Source: a bacterium (GTDB taxonomy: Bacteria > SZUA-182 > DTGQ01). From it: DNA of 12,790 nt. Positions 1,111-10,303 of the stretch are shown here, piece after piece. Made by a program: the position numbers and the translations under genes. The notes beneath the pieces were generated by a model that worked only from the letters and a program-made list of their open reading frames with translations, ran no database searches and had not been told where the DNA came from. Numbering within the stretch: the stretch's first letter is position 1; every line of letters starts with the position of its first letter. Location of the stretch: positions 1 through 12,790 of the forward strand of contig JBFMGO010000142.1 in assembly GCA_040752695.1 (NCBI GenBank), given 5' to 3'.

Positions 1111-1344
1111 TTTTTGCACCGCTCCTACTCGATGGATGCGATGGAAGCTCCTCGACGGTTGCCCTCCTGGCCCTGCCAGCATGGGTTTTTCCCTAAAGAG
1201 GCTATCTAAAAAGTAGCAGGTGAGGTAGAATAAATACACATTGTTTCAATTAGTTATAAGGTAGAAATCGGTTTATAAGATGTGTTTATTCAGAGATGGT
1301 AAAAAATCATCGCTCATATATAGTAGCCATCACATTCCTTTTTT

Positions 1345-1370
1345 GTCATTCCCGCGAAGGCTTAGAATCC
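1345..1370 (+). repeat. Degenerate REP/dRS3-like palindrome (GTCATTCCCGCGAAGGC..GAATCC)
   Basis: Matches the widespread GTCATTCCCGCGNAGGCGGGAATCC repeat except that the right-arm GGG is replaced by TTAG. Confidence 0.65.
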
Positions 1371-1963
1371 GTGTGACCGGCATGGTCGATAACTAGCTGG
1401 TGAAAGTCCAGCCATGAGTCGGAAAGAAGGCAACATGTAGGCGAAGGCAAGGGTGCCCGAAGAAACTTCTAGCTGCTGCCCGACGAGGGAAATAAACGGT
1501 GGAGGGGAGCCAATGAGGGATCTGAAGGAAGCCGTAGTCAAAATTGCCACTCAAGCTTGGTGCGAACCTCTGGCAGGCAGGGAAGAGGGGCCGAGGTACC
1601 GGATATTACCGAAGGCCGATATCCTTTACGTAACTCGACCTTGTATAGGAGGTGGGTGGGCAATGACAAAGCTATCGATCTTACCCGGTGAAGGGCCGCC
1701 TACTAGCGGACCGTTGTAACTGCGACAGCGTTGTCCTAAGCGGAGCAGAGATGTGACCGTTACGGGTAGGGGGTCTACAGATGAAGCCGTAGTAGTCGTA
1801 AAGCTGGGAGCCGATAAGGATACGGTGACGTATCTGAGGGGAAAACATTCAGCGAGCGGCATTTTTTTTCTGAGAGTGCTGGAGGCGAAGGGCGGAACAT
1901 GTAACCGAGAGTCTCAAATTTCATTTGGAACTACCGTCAAGAGTCCAGCCGGAAAAGGAACGA
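1371..1963 (+). mobile_element. Group II intron ribozyme 5' fragment (IIC-like DI, DII, DIII and start of DIV); no RT ORF, DV or DVI
   Basis: Starts GTGTGACCGGCATGG. Carries landmarks shared with IIC introns such as that of O. iheyensis: GGTGAAAGTCC, GCAAGGGTGCCC...ATCTGAAGGAAGC, TCTTACCCGG at the DI end, and GAAGCCGTAGTAG...GCGAAGGGC in DIII. EBS1 loop GGAT (1601-1604) is complementary to the exon end ATCC (1367-1370). Confidence 0.85.
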
Positions 1964-2032
1964 GTTGCGCTGACCTGGAAGGTGCTCCGATAGAAAGCGC
2001 GTCAGCACTCTTGCAAAATCAGTCTGCTTCAT
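1964..2032 (-). pseudogene. N-terminal stub of the third RIT recombinase (RitC)
   Basis: An ATG at 2032 overlapping the ritB stop reads MKQTDFARVLTRFLSEHLPGQRN, a typical RitC N-terminus. It then runs into intron sequence and stops at 1937-1939. Not in the ORF track. Confidence 0.8.
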
Positions 2033-3003
2033 GGAACGGCACCTCCGGTATTAAAAATGAAAAGTTTTGTTCCACAGAGGCTATGATGTCCGGATATAAA
2101 TCAGCAGTCAGCCTCAAGTAATGCTGTGTACCTCTTAGGTCAACATGCCCCAGATACACGGAAAGATAGGGAAGGAGGCTCGAAAGATCATCTTTATTCA
2201 AAACCTATTTCTTTAAGCAATGGACGGAAAATGAATGTCTTATATCGTGGAGTCTTGGACCCTTTCCACTATGGGAAATCCTGGCCTTCCAGAGTATCTC
2301 CCTGAACAGGCGATATATAGTGTTTTCCTTAATACCGCCCTCCATATGGAGACGGGAAGAAGAAAGGGTTACAGGATTCATAATTATGAACTTTCCCTGC
2401 ATACTGGCGGCAGCTTTCTGTCAGGGATTCTGCCATTGGGACAATCCGTTCTTTTCCGAATTTCGCATCCCGTATAAATAACGTCCCTTGCCTTAAGTCA
2501 ACCTCATCAAGCTTTAAATTCAGAGCCTCTGAAATCCGCAGGCCGCACCCGTATAACATACGGAAAAGAAGTGGAAGTATCAGATGCCGGTTGGGAGAAA
2601 CCTCGGAAACGGGATAATTGTCGCAGATGGTAAAAATATCTTTCAGCTCTTTTTCTGAAAAAATGTAAGGGACATAGGAATACCTGGCAATGGTAACAGC
2701 GGCTGCCGGAAAAACGTATGCCTCATGACCAAGACGTGCCATATATTTTGCAAACCCGCGCACTATTGAGATCCTTGCGTTTCTGTTACTGTCTGTTTCA
2801 TTCGGCCTCTTTTGCGTCCATAACAATACCATCTCCTTCGGAAGTTTCTTTTCCACCAGGTGTTCCTTGACAACCAGAGTATCAAACTGTTTCAAAAGAG
2901 AGGAACCCTTTATGTATTTGTAACCCACAGCTCTTTTTTCCTCTCTATATCCGGCAATTAATTCACCAAGAACGCTTTCAAAAACAACGAGTTTTTCAGG
3001 CAT
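2019..3003 (-). pseudogene. RIT tyrosine recombinase B with a frameshift and a nonsense codon
   Basis: Start MPEKLVVFES overlaps the ritA stop. GLRISEA, KFGKER, HDIRH, YLGH and TQHY motifs are spread over three ORF pieces. One extra base near 2331 (tat-t-aag), and an in-frame TAG at 2205-2207 where Trp is expected (KK*VLNKDD). Confidence 0.9.
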
Positions 3004-4237
3004 CCTTAAACACCTCCTCTGGATCAATGGCACATGAGCACAATCCTTCAATTCCTGTATGCAGATAGACCCCGGTAGACCTGGAATTGAAATGTCCGAG
3101 GATTTCAGAGATTATGGGCAATGGTGTCCCCTTCTCCAGCAAAGTACTCGCAAGTGTGTGACGAAGCGAATGCAATCCGTGTCTTTTGCCCCTCGGGACA
3201 GTGATTCCGGAAAGCCTGGTGTATCTTGTGATGATGTTATGAAGATTGGCATTTTCTCCAAAGGCCTCATAGGGAGCGTTCATCCGTATAAATACAAAAG
3301 GTGAATTACTTGTGGGGCGTGCATTTTTCAGATAATCAATCAATGCCCAGCCTATATCGCTTAAAATGGGATAGGTGACGGTGTTCTTTGTTTTATCCTG
3401 CCGTATATTTATGGTTTTTGACCGCCAGTCTAAATCTGATAATTTCAAAGACTTAATGTCACCGACCCTTATGCCGAGCCTGGCAACCAGAAGCAGGATG
3501 GCATAATCTCTCTTGCCGGTTGGATTCCCTCTGTCAATGCCTTCCAGCATACGCACTACATCTTCCTTATTCCAGACAGAAGGAACGGCAGGATAATAAT
3601 ACTTATTCTGTTTTGGGACTTTTAAAGACAGGTCTTCAGCCGTATATTGGTTAAGGTAGAGAAATCTTAAAAATACCCTGAGCGTTGTTAAGATTGCTGA
3701 AATGCTTTTTTCATGGTGCGCATAGATTGTTTTTACATAATCGGATATCATATCCGGCGTAATAGCATTTACATCCTGAACATTCCTGGCACCCAGATAA
3801 TCTACGAAGAAAAACAGCCGTTGCGTCCGCGTACGCAGTCCTCTTTTTGAATAATCGTTGCTCTCACATTCCCTTTCATAGGCTGTCAGCTCTTTTTCAA
3901 ATTGCGGGGGTTTTACGTATCCGGGCTTTTTAACAATTCTCCGGACTATCACACCATGTAGTTGATAATCTCCCAAAATCCGTATTTTCCTGATGGGATG
4001 TCTATATGCCCTGGGCATAGCTTCCGTATAATAATTGATTGTGCAGTTATACTTTGCTTTTAAGAATTCTCTTCCTAATTCTTCTGAAAAATAAAGTTCC
4101 TCCTTCTCGTTGGCAAAAGCAATCACCTTCTTGTAAAAGCCACGATATCCACAAAGTGAGCTGTAGGAATAATTCAGCCTTTTAAGTTCCGCTAATACCT
4201 TAGCGACAAGCTCATTAATGGTTGGTTTTGTTTCCAT
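2996..4237 (-). CDS. RIT tyrosine recombinase A (413 aa), apparently intact
   Basis: Catalytic set present: LGIRVGDI (R), QDKTK (K), HSLRH, LGH and GVYL (Y); AGGAGG RBS upstream of the ATG. Confidence 0.95.
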   Translation of the reverse strand: METKPTINELVAKVLAELKRLNYSYSSLCGYRGFYKKVIAFANEKEELYFSEELGREFLKAKYNCTINYYTEAMPRAYRHPIRKIRILGDYQLHGVIVRRIVKKPGYVKPPQFEKELTAYERECESNDYSKRGLRTRTQRLFFFVDYLGARNVQDVNAITPDMISDYVKTIYAHHEKSISAILTTLRVFLRFLYLNQYTAEDLSLKVPKQNKYYYPAVPSVWNKEDVVRMLEGIDRGNPTGKRDYAILLLVARLGIRVGDIKSLKLSDLDWRSKTINIRQDKTKNTVTYPILSDIGWALIDYLKNARPTSNSPFVFIRMNAPYEAFGENANLHNIITRYTRLSGITVPRGKRHGLHSLRHTLASTLLEKGTPLPIISEILGHFNSRSTGVYLHTGIEGLCSCAIDPEEVFKDA

Positions 4238-4341: not shown

Positions 4342-4400
4342 CTTTCCATAAGCAAAAACTTGCGATAATTGCCATTATGGAAAGCTTTCCATAATGGCAA
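4342..4400. repeat. RIT terminal recombination site with a perfect 32-bp palindrome (4369-4400)
   Basis: CTTTCCATAA (4342), CTTGCGATAA (4359, 17 bp later), spacer TTGCCA, then TTATGGAAAG-CTTTCCATAA (4375-4394), then TGGCAA. Confidence 0.85.
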
Positions 4401-4827
4401 AACCCATCTTTCGGTAAGCATAGGGATCAAAGCACTGATGAAAGGCTACAAGGTGCTCTTTACTTCAGTTGGCGAGATGTTGCAGAACCTTCACTTTTCC
4501 AAAGCTGATAATACCTACTACCAAAAGCTCAAACACTACCTTTCGCCAGAGGTGCTGATCCTGGATGAGCTGGGGTTTAAGAAACTGCCCGCCTACAGTG
4601 CTGATGATTTTTTTGAGGTGATTTCAAAACGATACGAGACCGGCTCAGTCATCATTACCTCCAATAAAGACTTCGAGCAGTGGGCAGAAATTTTCTCTGA
4701 TCACATATTGGCCTCGGCCATTATTGATCGCATAGTCCATCATAGTGTGGTGATTAAAATCACAGGCTCCAGCTTTCGCACGAAGGGCATGAAAAACAAA
4801 GGATGCGATGGCCAGGATAAATCGTAA
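4396..4827 (+). pseudogene. istB: IS21-family helper ATPase, 3' fragment starting inside Walker A
   Basis: GKTHL (end of Walker A), VLILDELGF (Walker B), IITSNK..W..IF.D...A.AIIDRIVHH and G.SFR are IstB hallmarks; the N-terminus is replaced by the RIT end. Confidence 0.92.
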
Positions 4828-5087: not shown

Positions 5088-5363
5088 GATGTGAAAACTG
5101 CTCTGATTGCCTGGCCGGAAATCCAGATCCAGTTTATCCCCAAGTATGCCAGTTGGCTCAATCTGATTGAACCCTGGTGGAAACAGTTGCGCTCCCTTGC
5201 CCTGAAAGGCAAGCGATTTGAGGATACGCAGGAGTTGATTGATGCTTTTACCCATGCTCTTGATTTTTGGAACGCCCATAAGCATCCTTATATTTGGAAG
5301 AAGATTCCTGAACTTCTCCCAAAATCCATCTTGGGTGGTTTTGGCTCCACATTAAATGCATGA
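5088..5363 (+). pseudogene. IS630-family transposase C-terminal fragment
   Basis: [16 protein letters not shown] matches the IS630 P.YS..LN.IE motif containing the catalytic Glu; ends with N....PYIW; the HTH and first two catalytic Asp residues are absent. Confidence 0.85.
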
Positions 5364-5463: not shown

Positions 5464-6783
5464 TCACCCTTTTTGAATCACCCGGGCCAGTTCTCTCACA
5501 CGCTCCAGAATGGGCTCTTCTTCCAGATGCAGGAGCTTTCGGTTTTTCATCAGGATGGTTCCATTGACCACCACGCTGTTGACATCGGCACCGTTGAGAG
5601 AATAGACCAGGTGAGAGTAAAGGTTATAGAGGGGCATAAGGTGCGGTTTTCGAAGATCGAGGGTAATCAGGTCCGCTTTTTTGCCGGGCTCGAGTGAGCC
5701 GATATCCGCCGCCATGCCCATGACCTTTGCTCCGCCTTTTGTGGCCATGTACACAGCCTGCCTGGCGTTTAACGCGGTAGGATCGAGGCGTGCAACCTTA
5801 TGGAGTTTGGCCGCAGTGTCCATCTCCTGAAAAAGATCCAGATCGTTATTGCTGGCGCAGCCATCGGTGCCCAGCCCCACGGTTATTCCCTTTTGCAAAA
5901 GGGCTGGTATGGGAGCCACGCCGGAAGCAAGCTTCATGTTGCTTTCCGGTGCGTGGACTACCTTCACCTGGAATTTCTGGAGAAGGTCAATCTCTTCCGG
6001 ACTGAGCCAGACGCAATGAATGGCCATGACCGTTTCGTCCAGAATGCCAAGGTCTGCCAGATGCTGGATGGGCCTTTTTCCGTACTTACGCATCACTTCC
6101 TGGATTTCGGTCTGGGTCTCGGCAGCATGGATGCCAAAGGGAAGGCCATGCTTTTGGGCCAGTTTCTTGGTTTCCCGGATCGTTCCGGGGCCGCAGGTAT
6201 ACGCTGAGTGGCAAAAAAGAGCGGGCTTGATCCGGCCCGACGCGTCCGCCCCCTTCCATCGGCGGATGAACCTCTCGGCCAGGCGCAGGTTCTCTGCGGG
6301 ATCAGGGGCATCAGGCGAGGGAAAATCGACGATCCCCTGAGCCATGAGGCCCCGAAGTCCGGCATCCTGGACAGCACGCGCCGCTTCTGACTCAAAGAAA
6401 TAGCTGTCGCTCAAAGTGGTAGTGCCTGATTTGATCATTTCGATGCAGGCCAGGAGTGTCCCGAGGTAAACATGCTCTTTATTCATAAAACGGGATTCAG
6501 CCGGGAAGATATGATTTAAAAGCCAGTCCATCAAGCCAAGATCGTCGGCCAGTCCCCGGAAAAGGGTCATGGCGGCATGAGTATGAGTATTAACCAGCCC
6601 CGGCATAACCAGTTGGCCCTTTACGTCGAGGGTTTCGGAGCCTGCGTATCTGGCGGCGAGATCCTGCCCAATCTCGATGATGGTGTCTCCCCTGACGGCG
6701 ATATCGCCCGGATCGAGGATCGAATCATGGTCATCCAGACAGAGAACTTTCCCCCCTAAAATCAATAAATCAGCTTCCTGCAT
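5464..6783 (-). CDS. mtaD: Amidohydrolase, MTA/SAH/5'-deoxyadenosine deaminase family (paralog 2)
   Basis: PGLVNTHTH, IFPAE, CHSAY, HAAET, HCVW, PESNMKLASG and GTDGCASNN motifs; exact substrate not determinable. Confidence 0.88.
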   Translation of the reverse strand: MQEADLLILGGKVLCLDDHDSILDPGDIAVRGDTIIEIGQDLAARYAGSETLDVKGQLVMPGLVNTHTHAAMTLFRGLADDLGLMDWLLNHIFPAESRFMNKEHVYLGTLLACIEMIKSGTTTLSDSYFFESEAARAVQDAGLRGLMAQGIVDFPSPDAPDPAENLRLAERFIRRWKGADASGRIKPALFCHSAYTCGPGTIRETKKLAQKHGLPFGIHAAETQTEIQEVMRKYGKRPIQHLADLGILDETVMAIHCVWLSPEEIDLLQKFQVKVVHAPESNMKLASGVAPIPALLQKGITVGLGTDGCASNNDLDLFQEMDTAAKLHKVARLDPTALNARQAVYMATKGGAKVMGMAADIGSLEPGKKADLITLDLRKPHLMPLYNLYSHLVYSLNGADVNSVVVNGTILMKNRKLLHLEEEPILERVRELARVIQKG

Positions 6784-6828
6784 CGCCTTTCCCTCTGTAA
6801 TCTTACCTTTTGATCCTTTTTTTAAGAT

Positions 6829-8178
6829 TTATTCTTTTTTCAAAAACCCCAGTACTTTCGCCTTCAAATCTTCGACCTGTCCGAGGATTGCTCCCATGTC
6901 GGCCACAACGGGCAGCCGGTTTTTGACGATCAGTTCTCCATTGATCCAGACGCTGTCAACATCGGCTCCACAGGCAGAGTAAACCAGATGCGAATAGATA
7001 TTGTATAATGGCACCAGGTGGGGCTTGTTAAGATCAATGACTATACAATCCGCTTTCTTTCCAGGCTCCAGGGTGCCGATTTCGGCCTCCAGGCCCACAG
7101 CCCTGGCTCCTCCGACCGTAGCCATCTCAAGAACCGTTTTTGCATCCATGGCGGTGGGGTCTGCGGCAAAAACCTTGTGAAGCTTGGCTGTTACATCCAT
7201 TTCCTGGAAAAGATCCAGATTATTGTTGCTGGCGCAGCCATCCGTGCCAAGTCCCACCGGAATTCCCTTTTGAAGCAGGCGCGGTATAGGAGCGACTCCT
7301 GAAGCCAGTTTCATGTTGCTTTCGGGTGCATGGGCCACCCGGACCCCCAGTTCGCCGAAAGATTCGATATCCTGATCCTTCAGCCAGATGCAATGATCTG
7401 CCAGCACCTGGTGATCCAGCACTCCGAGCGATTTGAGGTGCTGCACCGGATTTTTTCCGTATCGCTCCTGAATTATCTGGACTTCCTGCATGGTTTCAGC
7501 CAGATGAATGATGAAGGAAACGCCATACTTTTCTGCGATTTTTTTGCTCTTTTTCAAAAGTTCGGGGGAGCAGGTATACGGGGAGTGAGGCTCCACAGCC
7601 GGAACAATGAGCGGGTCTCCCTGCCATTGCTGAATCAATTCTTCTGTGTAGTGAAAGCCCGCTTCGGGCGGTCCGTAATTGGGGGAGGGAAAATCATAGA
7701 GCACCTCACCCACTACGGCACGCATTTTCATATCCCGTGCGGCCTGGGCCACGGATTTTTCAAAGAGGTACATATCGCAAAAAGTCGTTGTTCCGGAAAG
7801 AAGCATCTCAAGACAGGCAATTTGCGTCCCGGCGTAGACCAGCTCTTTCGTCAGCTTGCTTTCCGCAGGGAAGATATATCCCTGAAGCCAGTCCATGAGG
7901 GGAAGATCATCGGCCAGCCCCCGAAAGAGGGTCATGGCGGCGTGGGTATGGGCATTGACCAGCCCTGGCATAATCAGGTGCTGAGGGAAGTGAAAGACAC
8001 TTTTGGCCCTGTATTTTTGTTCCAGTTCCTGCGTGCTGTCTGCATCAACGATCCTGTCATTTTGGATGGCTACACCGCCGTATTCGATGGGCTTTGACTG
8101 AGGAGCCATGGTGATGAGCCATCGCCCAAAGATAAGGGAATCTACCTGCCGCGGGCTGGAAGTATCGATCGGCTTCAT
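6829..8178 (-). CDS. mtaD: Amidohydrolase, MTA/SAH/5'-deoxyadenosine deaminase family (paralog 1)
   Basis: PGLVNAHTH, IFPAE, PHSPY, HLAET, HCIW, PESNMKLASG and GTDGCASNN motifs; ATGA overlap with the upstream phosphorylase stop. Confidence 0.88.
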   Translation of the reverse strand: MKPIDTSSPRQVDSLIFGRWLITMAPQSKPIEYGGVAIQNDRIVDADSTQELEQKYRAKSVFHFPQHLIMPGLVNAHTHAAMTLFRGLADDLPLMDWLQGYIFPAESKLTKELVYAGTQIACLEMLLSGTTTFCDMYLFEKSVAQAARDMKMRAVVGEVLYDFPSPNYGPPEAGFHYTEELIQQWQGDPLIVPAVEPHSPYTCSPELLKKSKKIAEKYGVSFIIHLAETMQEVQIIQERYGKNPVQHLKSLGVLDHQVLADHCIWLKDQDIESFGELGVRVAHAPESNMKLASGVAPIPRLLQKGIPVGLGTDGCASNNNLDLFQEMDVTAKLHKVFAADPTAMDAKTVLEMATVGGARAVGLEAEIGTLEPGKKADCIVIDLNKPHLVPLYNIYSHLVYSACGADVDSVWINGELIVKNRLPVVADMGAILGQVEDLKAKVLGFLKKE

Positions 8179-9107
8179 TTTTGGACCTCCTCTTGGCTCT
8201 CTTCCTGTGTCACCTCCCGGATCTTTCCTTGGATCTCTTCCCGGCCCGCCACTTTTCTTTTATGTGCAGAGTCCGAAGGGGAAATTTCCATTCTGGCCAC
8301 GATCTTCTCGATGAGGTATCTGAGGGTGGATTCTGTTTTGGCCGCCACGGAGACAACATCTTCGTAGCTGATTGCCTGAAAGGCGTCAGGCAGATTGAGG
8401 TTACTGATAATCGAAAGACCGAGGATTCGCAACCCCGCATGGATAGCGACAATAACCTCGGGCACAGTGGACATTCCCACCGCATCGGCACCAGCCATGC
8501 GCAGGAAGCGGGTCTCGGCAGGGGTCTCAAGGTTCGGCCCATGGACAGCGATATAGACACCCTTCTGGAGGGATATCCTTTCCTCAAGGGCAATGTGCCC
8601 GGCCATTTTGATGAGCTCTGGATCGTAGGCATCTTTCATGTCCGGGAACCGCAATCCCAGCCAATCGGGATTAGGGCCGATCAAGGGGCTGGTCCCCATG
8701 AGATTGATGTGGTCCACAATGACCATCAGGTCCCCGACATTGAATAAAGGATTGAGCCCACCGGCAGTATTACAGACGATTAGTGTCCGGACACCGAGCT
8801 TTTTCATGGTTCGGACGGGAAACGCGATCTGCTGCGAGTTATATCCTTCGTAGTAGTGAAACCTTTTGGGAAGGACAACGACGGGTTTTTTGGCCAATTT
8901 CCCCAAAACCAGTTTTTCCCTCTCACTCGCTTCATCTGAACAGGGAAACCCGGGTATACGGGAGTAAGGAATAGCGACGGATTCCTCTAACTGATTCAGC
9001 AGTTCTCCCATGCCGGTCCCGAGGATGATACCGATTTTGGGAACAATGCTTGTCTTCTCCTGTATGAAACAGGAGGCTTGCTCAAGTTGCCTTTCTAAAT
9101 CTTCCAT
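8175..9107 (-). CDS. Purine nucleoside phosphorylase, trimeric (PunA/XapA-like) family, atypical active site
   Basis: GIILGTG, RFHYYEG, AGGLN, DHIN, RFPDM, GPNLETPAE and GADAVGMSTVPE motifs; AGGAG RBS. Confidence 0.92.
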   Translation of the reverse strand: MEDLERQLEQASCFIQEKTSIVPKIGIILGTGMGELLNQLEESVAIPYSRIPGFPCSDEASEREKLVLGKLAKKPVVVLPKRFHYYEGYNSQQIAFPVRTMKKLGVRTLIVCNTAGGLNPLFNVGDLMVIVDHINLMGTSPLIGPNPDWLGLRFPDMKDAYDPELIKMAGHIALEERISLQKGVYIAVHGPNLETPAETRFLRMAGADAVGMSTVPEVIVAIHAGLRILGLSIISNLNLPDAFQAISYEDVVSVAAKTESTLRYLIEKIVARMEISPSDSAHKRKVAGREEIQGKIREVTQEESQEEVQK

Positions 9108-9115
9108 AAGCGTAC

Positions 9116-10303
9116 TTATTCTCCTCTTTTTGCCTTTCGAAAGTGATCAAATCCGGATTCCGGGACTGGAATGGCTTGCCCTTGGGCATCAATAAGGCGA
9201 ACGCCTTTGATCTTTTCGGTGATCTCGCCTATAATACTGACCCTCGTGCCGGTGGCCTGCTCAATCATCTGCCTGGCCTTTTCAGCCAGATCAGGGGGGG
9301 AGGTGAAGAGCAATTCATAATCCTCCCCTCCGAAGAGTGCATAGGAAAGGACAGGCTTTTGGAGCACCTTTGCAATTTCGATAACAGCCCCTGAAATGGG
9401 AAGTCGCTCAAGCCAAAGGAGGGCACCTGCTTCCCCAGGGCCACATTTTTGAGAGACACGGCTGCCCTGGCGACCAGAGGGACCATAAAGGGCTTGCTGT
9501 TCGTGGCAGCCCTGGTGAACGTGGCGGCAAAGGTGCCTCAAATCCCCTGCCACTCCATCACTGACATCGATCATGGCAGTGGCCAGCCGGTGCTGGCTGA
9601 TTATCCGGGACTCGGCCAGGCGAACAACAGGAACCCGATGCCGCTGAAGCGCCTTTTGGTATTGACTGTCGAGAAGATAGTAACTCGCCTGAAGAGAAGG
9701 ACTGTCCTCTTGAAATGAAGGATGCTCTATAGCCTGCAACAGGTCGAGCCCTGCGGCAGAATCTCCAATCTGGCCGGTCAATAAGATCAAGTCACCCGGT
9801 CTGGCACCGTGCCGGGTAATTAACCCCTGCGGACAGACCTCCCCGATCAGAGTGATATTAATCACCAGTCCCCGCTCCTCTACCTGGGGAAAGCTGGCGT
9901 TGGTATCTCCTCCTAAAATCAGGACGGAATATTCTCGAGCAACAGCGGCCAGACCATGCCAGAGCTCGTCGAATTCTTCCAGATAAAAAGAGGCAGGGAG
10001 CGCCACAGATATAAAGGCATACTTTGGCTCGCCCCCCATGGCCGCAATGTCACTGAGATTCACAATCATGGCCTTTTGCCCGATCTCCCGGAGTGAGGAG
10101 TAGTCCCGGCTGAAATGGACATCCTCGATGAGCATATCGGTCGTGACCAGAAGATATTTTCCCCTTGCACCCCGAAGCACTGCACAATCATCTCCGATAC
10201 CTGCCACAACCTGCCTCCCGTCCGCATTTTGAGCAGCCGAAGCGAGTATCGTCTGAAGACGCTGGATGAGCTGAAATTCACCCGGCATTTGAGTTGAAGA
10301 CAT
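9116..10303 (-). CDS. thiL: Thiamine-monophosphate kinase
   Basis: GEF.LI, GIGDDCA, TTDMLIEDVHF, NLSDIAAMG, GGDT, R.GA.PGD, MIDVSDG, GGEDYELLF and terminal GFDHF motifs. Confidence 0.97.
   Translation of the reverse strand: MSSTQMPGEFQLIQRLQTILASAAQNADGRQVVAGIGDDCAVLRGARGKYLLVTTDMLIEDVHFSRDYSSLREIGQKAMIVNLSDIAAMGGEPKYAFISVALPASFYLEEFDELWHGLAAVAREYSVLILGGDTNASFPQVEERGLVINITLIGEVCPQGLITRHGARPGDLILLTGQIGDSAAGLDLLQAIEHPSFQEDSPSLQASYYLLDSQYQKALQRHRVPVVRLAESRIISQHRLATAMIDVSDGVAGDLRHLCRHVHQGCHEQQALYGPSGRQGSRVSQKCGPGEAGALLWLERLPISGAVIEIAKVLQKPVLSYALFGGEDYELLFTSPPDLAEKARQMIEQATGTRVSIIGEITEKIKGVRLIDAQGQAIPVPESGFDHFRKAKRGE

Follow-up and report, generated by a model that had tools for sequence, protein, structure and literature searches.

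The stretch of bacterial DNA analysed here, referred to as the window (12,790 nt), includes a region that is a pile of mobile-element remnants. On the minus strand at 5464-10303 lie thiL, a purine nucleoside phosphorylase gene and two tandem paralogous amidohydrolase genes, whose DNA is about 80% alike over the shared stretches. To their left are fragments of IstB (IS21) (4369-4827) and of a DDE_3 transposase (5091-5363), a cluster of tyrosine-recombinase genes, and the 5′ part of a group II intron that directly follows a REP-like palindrome (Table 1). A repeated module at 602-1275, with 91% identity to the region C111 and 78% to C161, contains 23-nt inverted repeats (688-710/1168-1190) and GGCCAA..TTGGCC repeats (994-1110), and is MITE- or origin-like. 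The paralogous region C111 was considered as an empty allele of the window site and does not provide one. An 18-nt tandem repeat of about four copies occupies 355-428.

Table 1. Features around the intron junction in the window, with the evidence for each.
Feature	Positions	Strand	Evidence
Repeated flank motif, part of a compound repeat, usually 5′ of the REP	1319..1338	+	Copies in G000
CGTC-1/dRS3-type REP, TTAG variant; 5′ exon and target	1345..1370	+	Copy counts in G000; features in the available text of PMC3733652
IBS1 (ATCC)	1367..1370	+	Complementarity to 1601-1604; covariation
Group II intron 5′ fragment: DI, DII, DIII and start of DIV	1371..1955	+	Identity to L152
Rfam group-II-D1D4-3 match	1510..1679	+	RF02001
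Id3 stem-loop carrying EBS1	1589..1617	+	Consensus fold, 15 homologs
EBS1 (GGAU)	1601..1604	+	Covariation with exon -1 to -4, 72 introns
EBS3 (U)	1646	+	Column pairing with +1 in full-length introns
Tyrosine-recombinase cluster replacing the rest of the intron	1956..4237	-	PF00589 in the first two genes

The junction between palindrome and intron had been singled out in an earlier note made by inspection of the sequence, and every feature listed there was found where the note had placed it. The REP-like element is 26 nt long (GTCATTCCCGCGAAGGCTTAGAATCC, that is, GTCATTCCCGCGAAGGC followed by TTA and GAATCC) and is directly adjoined by GTGTG at 1371-1375. Within domain I (DI), the stem GGTA/TACC (1595-1598/1607-1610), nested inside GGCC/GGCC (1589-1592/1614-1617), closes an 8-nt loop, CCGGATAT (1599-1606), whose positions 3-6 read GGAT and are complementary to the last four bases of the palindrome. 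The Rfam model of group II DI matches with 67.7 bits and an E value of 4.7e-12, and both stems of Id3 show compensatory changes in the consensus fold. Plain minimum free energy folding of 1371-1700 was no better than that of shuffled sequences (z -0.06), so the intron structure rests on covariation. The GUGYG 5′ end, the DI fold and the covarying stems identify a group II intron; domains V and VI, an AY 3′ end and a reverse transcriptase (RT) ORF in DIV are absent from the window copy. The relative L152 has what the window copy lacks: it is a complete 2099-nt intron with an RT ORF and DV/DVI, matching RF00029 and, above the cut-off, TIGR04416.

The window copy aligns with L152 at 89% identity across 585 nt, and the match stops near position 1955. 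Judged by its sequence, it is a dead 5′ intron fragment that cannot splice or move, a remnant with no likely function; neither a second intron copy nor the 3′ half was found in the assembly of the genome that carries it (G000; 96.6% complete). The adjoining recombinase cluster, which we take to be RIT-like, is present in a single copy in G000. Its first gene is intact (2996-4237, minus strand) and its second lies in three pieces, frameshifted twice (2019-3051, minus strand), both with PF00589, while the 5′ stub of a likely third gene, running from 2032 to about 1956, is fused to the intron fragment; this stub is cut after about 25 codons and is assigned by position alone, without a family match. 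The recombinase element would have inserted later than the intron, and a deletion likely removed the remainder of the window's intron copy. G000 carries two other RT genes, both of a different intron type. Contigs C114 and C228 each carry an intact group II intron (L006, L007); both are of another class and are located in small palindromes of a different family, GGGGACAGATTT...AAATCTGTCCCC, with 10 strand-hits, two of them intron-occupied; the C228 copy sits exactly at the palindrome centre. Candidate EBS1 (TTGAAA, AATAAA) and EBS2 (TGTC/TGTCC) sequences of L006/L007 match the exons by eye, and this second G000 intron lineage would thus home into a palindromic repeat, probably by sequence.

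The palindrome at the window junction belongs to a multicopy family with the features of the CGTC-1 REPs, which are known as dRS3 in Neisseria. In the main text of PMC3733652, which mentions introns zero times, these repeats are described as having a CGTC/TGTC tag, an 8-bp stem that starts with AT, a 4-nt loop and a CCA tail, as forming head-to-head dimers and as seemingly lacking a transposase of their own. The G000 family is like the CGTC-1 REPs (dRS3 of Neisseria, RPE-6 of Rickettsia) in tag, stem, loop, tail and dimers; it differs in the frequent occurrence of a TTAG variant whose 3′ arm is broken, the window copy being one with a broken stem. We counted 89 matches to the canonical 25-mer at up to 4 mismatches, and 57 copies of the exact pattern as compared to none for the reversed control. 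The window-type REP was present in 6 of 20 genomes of the phylum. Among 179 REP heads in G000, 78 end in GAATCC, and the next base is A in 73 of these 78; the window REP is cut just before this final A of its CCA tail. The flank motif upstream has 32 copies in G000 (at up to 3 mismatches), with a REP head within 35 nt downstream in 25 of them. The shortened form in which the earlier note wrote the repeat concealed that TTA stands in for GG, leaving the window copy with hardly any hairpin (DNA ΔG -0.6 vs. -8.9 kcal/mol for the canonical form). There are 28 empty copies of this TTAG variant (TTAGAATCC/A, the slash marking the junction here and below) in G000, many of them in head-to-head dimers, and the variant thus predates the intron insertion. 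Only one REP in G000 is occupied, compared to 73 empty GAATCC/A copies. The genome contains 17,924 ATCCA sites, of which those 73 (0.4%) lie in REPs; the guide alone therefore cannot explain the choice of target, and something else must be read. Another REP in G000 (C17:37111-37136), with the same flank and TTAG variant as in the window, ends after GAATCC and gives way to unrelated sequence immediately ahead of an ORF; this may be what an earlier event, an insertion or a deletion at the base used in the window, has left behind. In G003, a genome of the same genus, a variant intron 5′ end, whose EBS1 lies beyond the contig end, follows the same REP family 4 nt further on, in a GAATGAC form.

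To collect relatives, we searched genome contigs with a 19-nt pattern, which gave 67 loci, comprising 15 homologous introns and 52 others that were rejected (51 chance matches and one 22-nt stub, L060), and metagenomes with a 32-letter lineage pattern, which gave at least 120 loci out of an estimated 400. The exact junction pattern had no match in the genome contigs, and the 32-letter pattern had none in viral contigs. In all, 137 intron 5′ ends were compared (genome and metagenome loci, one plasmid copy and the window). A sample of 401 genomes from another phylum yielded intron DNA in just 5; members of the lineage also occur in an archaeal MAG (Promethearchaeota; L042) and on a Methylomonas plasmid (L003), where the ORFs just upstream of the intron copy resemble type I-F cas genes. 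L041, L096 and L138 have internal deletions (716-830 nt) with both ends kept, and L119 is a tandem insertion, with the 3′ end of another intron copy as its 5′ exon.

Six metagenome loci share the first 85 nt of L152 identically (L106, L111, L142, L152, L153 and L185), and in all six the intron begins at the same base of the window's REP. The upstream flanks are of at least four kinds. The six loci stem from four assemblies, which may belong to a single campaign; EBS1 can be read only in L152 and in the window. The recurrence of a GAATCC junction that the earlier note had proposed to look for was thereby found: all seven subtype loci, the window included, are in one register, and L152 shows GGAATCC/A within a REP dimer. 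Its 3′ end is followed by A and, 17 nt later, by an inverted second REP, so that L152 lies in the 5′ arm of the dimer. The exact empty junction occurred in one contig of the DNA run X1, which any member of the REP family could yield; in the same run the depth of the intron exceeded that of its flanks, a difference that is not a copy number. Contigs of the RNA runs X2 and X4 contain the L152 intron with both junctions, which proves neither transcription nor splicing. The REP stem is damaged in three of the seven subtype loci (L111, L142 and the window).

The assignment of the GGAT loop as EBS1, made in the earlier note, gained support from covariation across homologs. Of 84 introns that were long enough, 12 were dropped for a broken stem or an identity below 60%; in the other 72, the loop forms Watson-Crick pairs with exon positions -1, -2, -3 and -4 in 81, 85, 89 and 42% of cases, as compared to 32, 33, 42 and 25% after permutation, and pairing at -5 and -6 is at chance. 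The mean number of pairs at -1 to -4 is 2.96 vs. 1.32 ± 0.10 for permuted sets (maximum 1.72 in 5000 permutations), and 30 different EBS1 4-mers occur among the 72 introns; since the introns are related to one another, permutation p-values are optimistic. For EBS3, our first guess on the 3′ side of Id3 (1611-1624) failed, and we compared every column with the first base of the 3′ exon across 21 two-ended introns (22 with one duplicate dropped). The column of window position 1646 pairs with +1 in 16 of the 21, a score reached at any column by 43 of 20000 permutations, and it lies in a loop 3′ of a covarying stem, where EBS3 is expected. The lineage thus combines a 3-4 nt EBS1, strong at -1 to -3 and partial at -4, with a single-base EBS3, as in class C introns. 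As to EBS2, the DI model has no large Id2 insert, with exon positions scanned to -6. The EBS3 of the window copy is U, which predicts A as the first base of the lost 3′ exon, and EBS1 and EBS3 together specify ATCC/A, the REP's own tail.

To assess what the lineage as a whole inserts into, we folded 113 distinct 5′ exons (from 123 with at least 100 nt), using windows 65 nt upstream as controls. The last 35 exon nucleotides fold at -5.5 kcal/mol, compared to -2.3 kcal/mol for the distal windows, and a z score below -1.65 was reached by 53 of 113 exons vs. 12 of 113 distal windows, the other 60 exons failing this threshold. A DNA stem-loop 5′ of the insertion is enriched lineage-wide and marginal at the window's own site. 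In 70 of the 113 exons, 0-3 nt separate the end of the stem from the junction; the last loop ends 8-12 nt before the junction in 46 of 80 folded exons vs. 2 of 31 distal ones, a control that is biased to mid-window. The earlier note had named as refuting its proposal a lineage sitting mostly after terminators or unrelated sequence, with no REP enrichment; a terminator majority was not seen, only 3 of 113 exons having T-rich, terminator-like tails. Its proposal that a REP is the target class of the lineage was supported for the subtype of L152 and the window (six of six loci) and was not supported as a rule for the whole lineage: of 120 distinct sites, 5 are CGTC-1 REPs, 52 belong to one of six further groups with a recurring motif and 63 to no group, the seven groups having been defined after inspection. 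The remaining sites, outside the CGTC-1 REP, are other palindromes, some of them single-copy. L194 (EBS1 AAGG), the next-closest intron by 5′ sequence, follows an unrelated hairpin; in G024, three identical intron 5′ ends follow three unrelated sequences, all ending in CAC; the TTCCCACGC family has 50 strand-matches in G021 and in G020 the occupied site only; and in their draft genomes the targets of L029, L037 and L071 occur only at or beside the occupied sites. The target class is better described as a short hairpin plus 3-4 guide-paired bases and one 3′ base, a combination often supplied by REPs.

A rival reading of these data, which we hold to be unlikely, is that the lineage is a REP-dedicated clade whose RT or RNA reads the conserved GCG-N-AG-GC cap, or else a REP-bound host protein, and not the helix as such. 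It would account for the constancy of cap and GAATCC over the subtype sites while the stem is damaged in three of seven, for GCG.AG-type cap motifs in 33 of 113 exons and in none of the controls (mostly 8-10 nt from the junction), and for the 57 of 120 sites that fall into the seven post hoc groups as opposed to 5 of 113 control windows. Against it stand the 63 sites outside these groups, the strong perfect hairpins with unrelated loops used by L071, L091, L188 and L194, a target that is single-copy in its genome (L071), and the three unrelated sequences upstream of the identical intron ends in G024.

The class to which the lineage belongs was examined through the RT and domain V of intact relatives. 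Their RT (439 aa) matches the GsI-IIC RT over its full length, its best PDB matches are the IIC RTs 6AR1 and 7UIM, and the closest RT relatives carry PF00078 and PF08388 only, with no endonuclease domain. Trees were built without bootstrap from lineage rows, 13 class C-type references, two outgroup introns of unassigned class and one distant fragment. In a quick IQ-TREE run the 22 lineage rows form one long-stemmed clade (SH-aLRT 99), and in FastTree, with 12 rows dropped, the 11 lineage rows form a clade with support 100; this clade is level with (IQ-TREE) or nested among (FastTree) the terminator-type and attC-type class C references. The trees agree with the IIC-like reading of the earlier note, as they group the intact relatives with class C-type references, apart from the outgroups. 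RT identity is 65-77% within the lineage and 37-48% to the class C references, and the attC-type RTs L200 and L201 form a separate branch, at about 41% identity to the lineage. Domain V has 30 nt in L152 and 21 others, with spacing as in the class C references. The class C references show a CGC catalytic triad, which the lineage does not share: the triad is AGC in all 22 recovered 3′ ends, found with a search pattern that required AGC and would miss exceptions. The scarcity of T-rich tails sets the lineage apart from the terminator-type IIC introns, and its RT branch and variable IBS1 set it apart from IIC-attC. In these trees the RT forms a long-branched clade inside class C, to which it belongs, although one defining RNA feature (CGC) fails. 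In its workings the lineage resembles class C, but it is of neither the terminator type nor the attC type.

With the terminator-targeting IIC introns (B.h.I1, O.i.I1, GsI-IIC and E. rectale, 7UIM/7UIN) the lineage shares an RT family without endonuclease domain, a 3-4 nt EBS1, a single-base EBS3, a short domain V and insertion 3′ of a DNA stem-loop. It differs in that its targets are almost never T-tailed terminators, its IBS1 overlaps or abuts the stem with no spacer between, its EBS1 takes 30 forms among 72 introns, its triad is AGC instead of CGC, and its RT is 37-48% identical. In the E. rectale IIC structure, as given in the available text of PMC10190682, a spacer lies between the 12-bp stem and the IBS1 3′ of it; the geometry of the lineage is thus different. 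Like the IIC-attC introns (S.ma.I2 type), as described in the available text of PMC7923331, the lineage enters the base of a bulged DNA stem-loop, or the point next to it, where this stem-loop is part of another repeated element; the fixed TTGT/T consensus of IIC-attC contrasts with the variable guide found here, and the window has no integron context. The REP-targeting insertion sequences ISPpu9, ISPpu10, ISPsy8, ISPa11 and IS1397 likewise use REPs as multicopy neutral landing sites (available text of PMC1525189), but they employ DNA transposases without RNA guide pairing, whereas the lineage is a ribozyme-RT retroelement. The target specificities listed for bacterial group II introns in the accessible part of the review PMC4424553 are homing sites, terminators and attC, and the IIC targets named in the available texts of PMC3733652, PMC4424553, PMC10190682, PMC7923331, PMC12584367, PMC4748821, PMC3552965, PMC10011109 and PMC1525189 are terminators and attC. 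In the available portions of the literature we found no REP-homing or AGC-triad class C clade; the one related record was a table row in PMC1525189, and other surveys may mention the clade.

That row (2006), in the part of PMC1525189 available, records two of nine P. putida group II intron copies as REP-associated, and it favours a second rival, namely that these are ordinary class C introns that take any stem-loop, hit REPs as the commonest hairpins and have no special clade geometry. The same is true of the phrase 'other inverted repeat structure', allowed as a IIC target in the accessible text of PMC7923331, and of the genome G143 (L250-L263), where the standard class C 5′ end was matched 17 times, some of the copies being nested or fragmentary. 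Among the matches listed, six follow GTAG-type REP-like repeats, the introns being identified by their 5′ end alone. REP use is not unique to this intron clade. We nevertheless give this reading little chance, given terminator-like tails in 3 of 113 exons as opposed to 5 of 12 in a crude class C control (12 of 36 matches kept), the closeness of stem and junction (0-3 nt in 70 of 113 exons) where the solved IIC complex has a spacer 3′ of its 12-bp stem, and the long stem branch and AGC triad of the lineage. Least credible by far is survivor bias or chance, with ATCC/A alone guiding insertion and only copies in dispensable repeats persisting: the repeats are indeed intergenic and dispensable, and one REP in G000 is occupied against 73 empty copies, but REPs hold so small a share of the ATCCA sites, so many other intergenic sites would be equally harmless, and all seven subtype loci share one register, that it can hardly hold.

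The explanation that we consider probable is that of a class C offshoot that homes by a hairpin plus a short guide, with REPs as abundant landing pads. The window intron is inserted at ATCC/A in the tail of a multicopy REP palindrome. By analogy with class C biochemistry, and with the E. rectale IIC structure in the available text of PMC10190682, target binding, melting, strand exposure and priming may proceed as follows. An RT-RNA particle would bind a short hairpin, about 10 nt upstream of the junction, in transiently single-stranded DNA exposed at a replication fork or in a transcription bubble. As IBS1 mostly falls within the 3′ arm of the stem or right next to it, the lower part of the hairpin would need to melt, and the particle may read its capped top only. 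EBS1 (3-4 nt) and EBS3 (1 nt) would then pair across the junction, where the intron RNA would reverse-splice and the RT make its copy without an endonuclease. A point against a pure stem model is that the window's own target barely folds (-0.6 kcal/mol); this weak hairpin and the damaged stems of L111 and L142 imply that some sites are used without a stable helix. A further difficulty is posed by empty head-to-head dimers, where single-stranded exposure of both arms would bury the junction in the pairing of a long stem. A subtype whose guide fits an abundant REP tail (GGAU plus U) would gain dozens of harmless landing sites, and drift of the guide could move an intron to another palindrome family, so that sub-families would come to lie in different repeats.

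The probable reading, a class C offshoot using hairpin and guide, would widen the hairpin-reading mode, in a geometry unlike the known one, so as to take in REPs as well as further short palindromes, and would make the CGTC repeats landing pads for retroelements. The 30 guide variants among 72 copies are a natural series with which to ask what the class C particle reads (helix, loop cap or distance), and the lineage lets one ask whether a short domain V needs the CGC triad. A more far-reaching idea, which we regard as possible though doubtful, is that of a third specialised class C branch beside the terminator and attC branches: an AGC-triad, REP-tracking retroelement in several bacterial phyla and one archaeal genome, whose RT would measure about 10 nt from a GCG-N-AG-capped hairpin and whose 4+1-base guide would be swapped freely to follow the host's REP family. 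If true, it would amount to an integrator of the 'mini-hairpin plus five bases' kind, reprogrammed in nature and parasitic on REPs.
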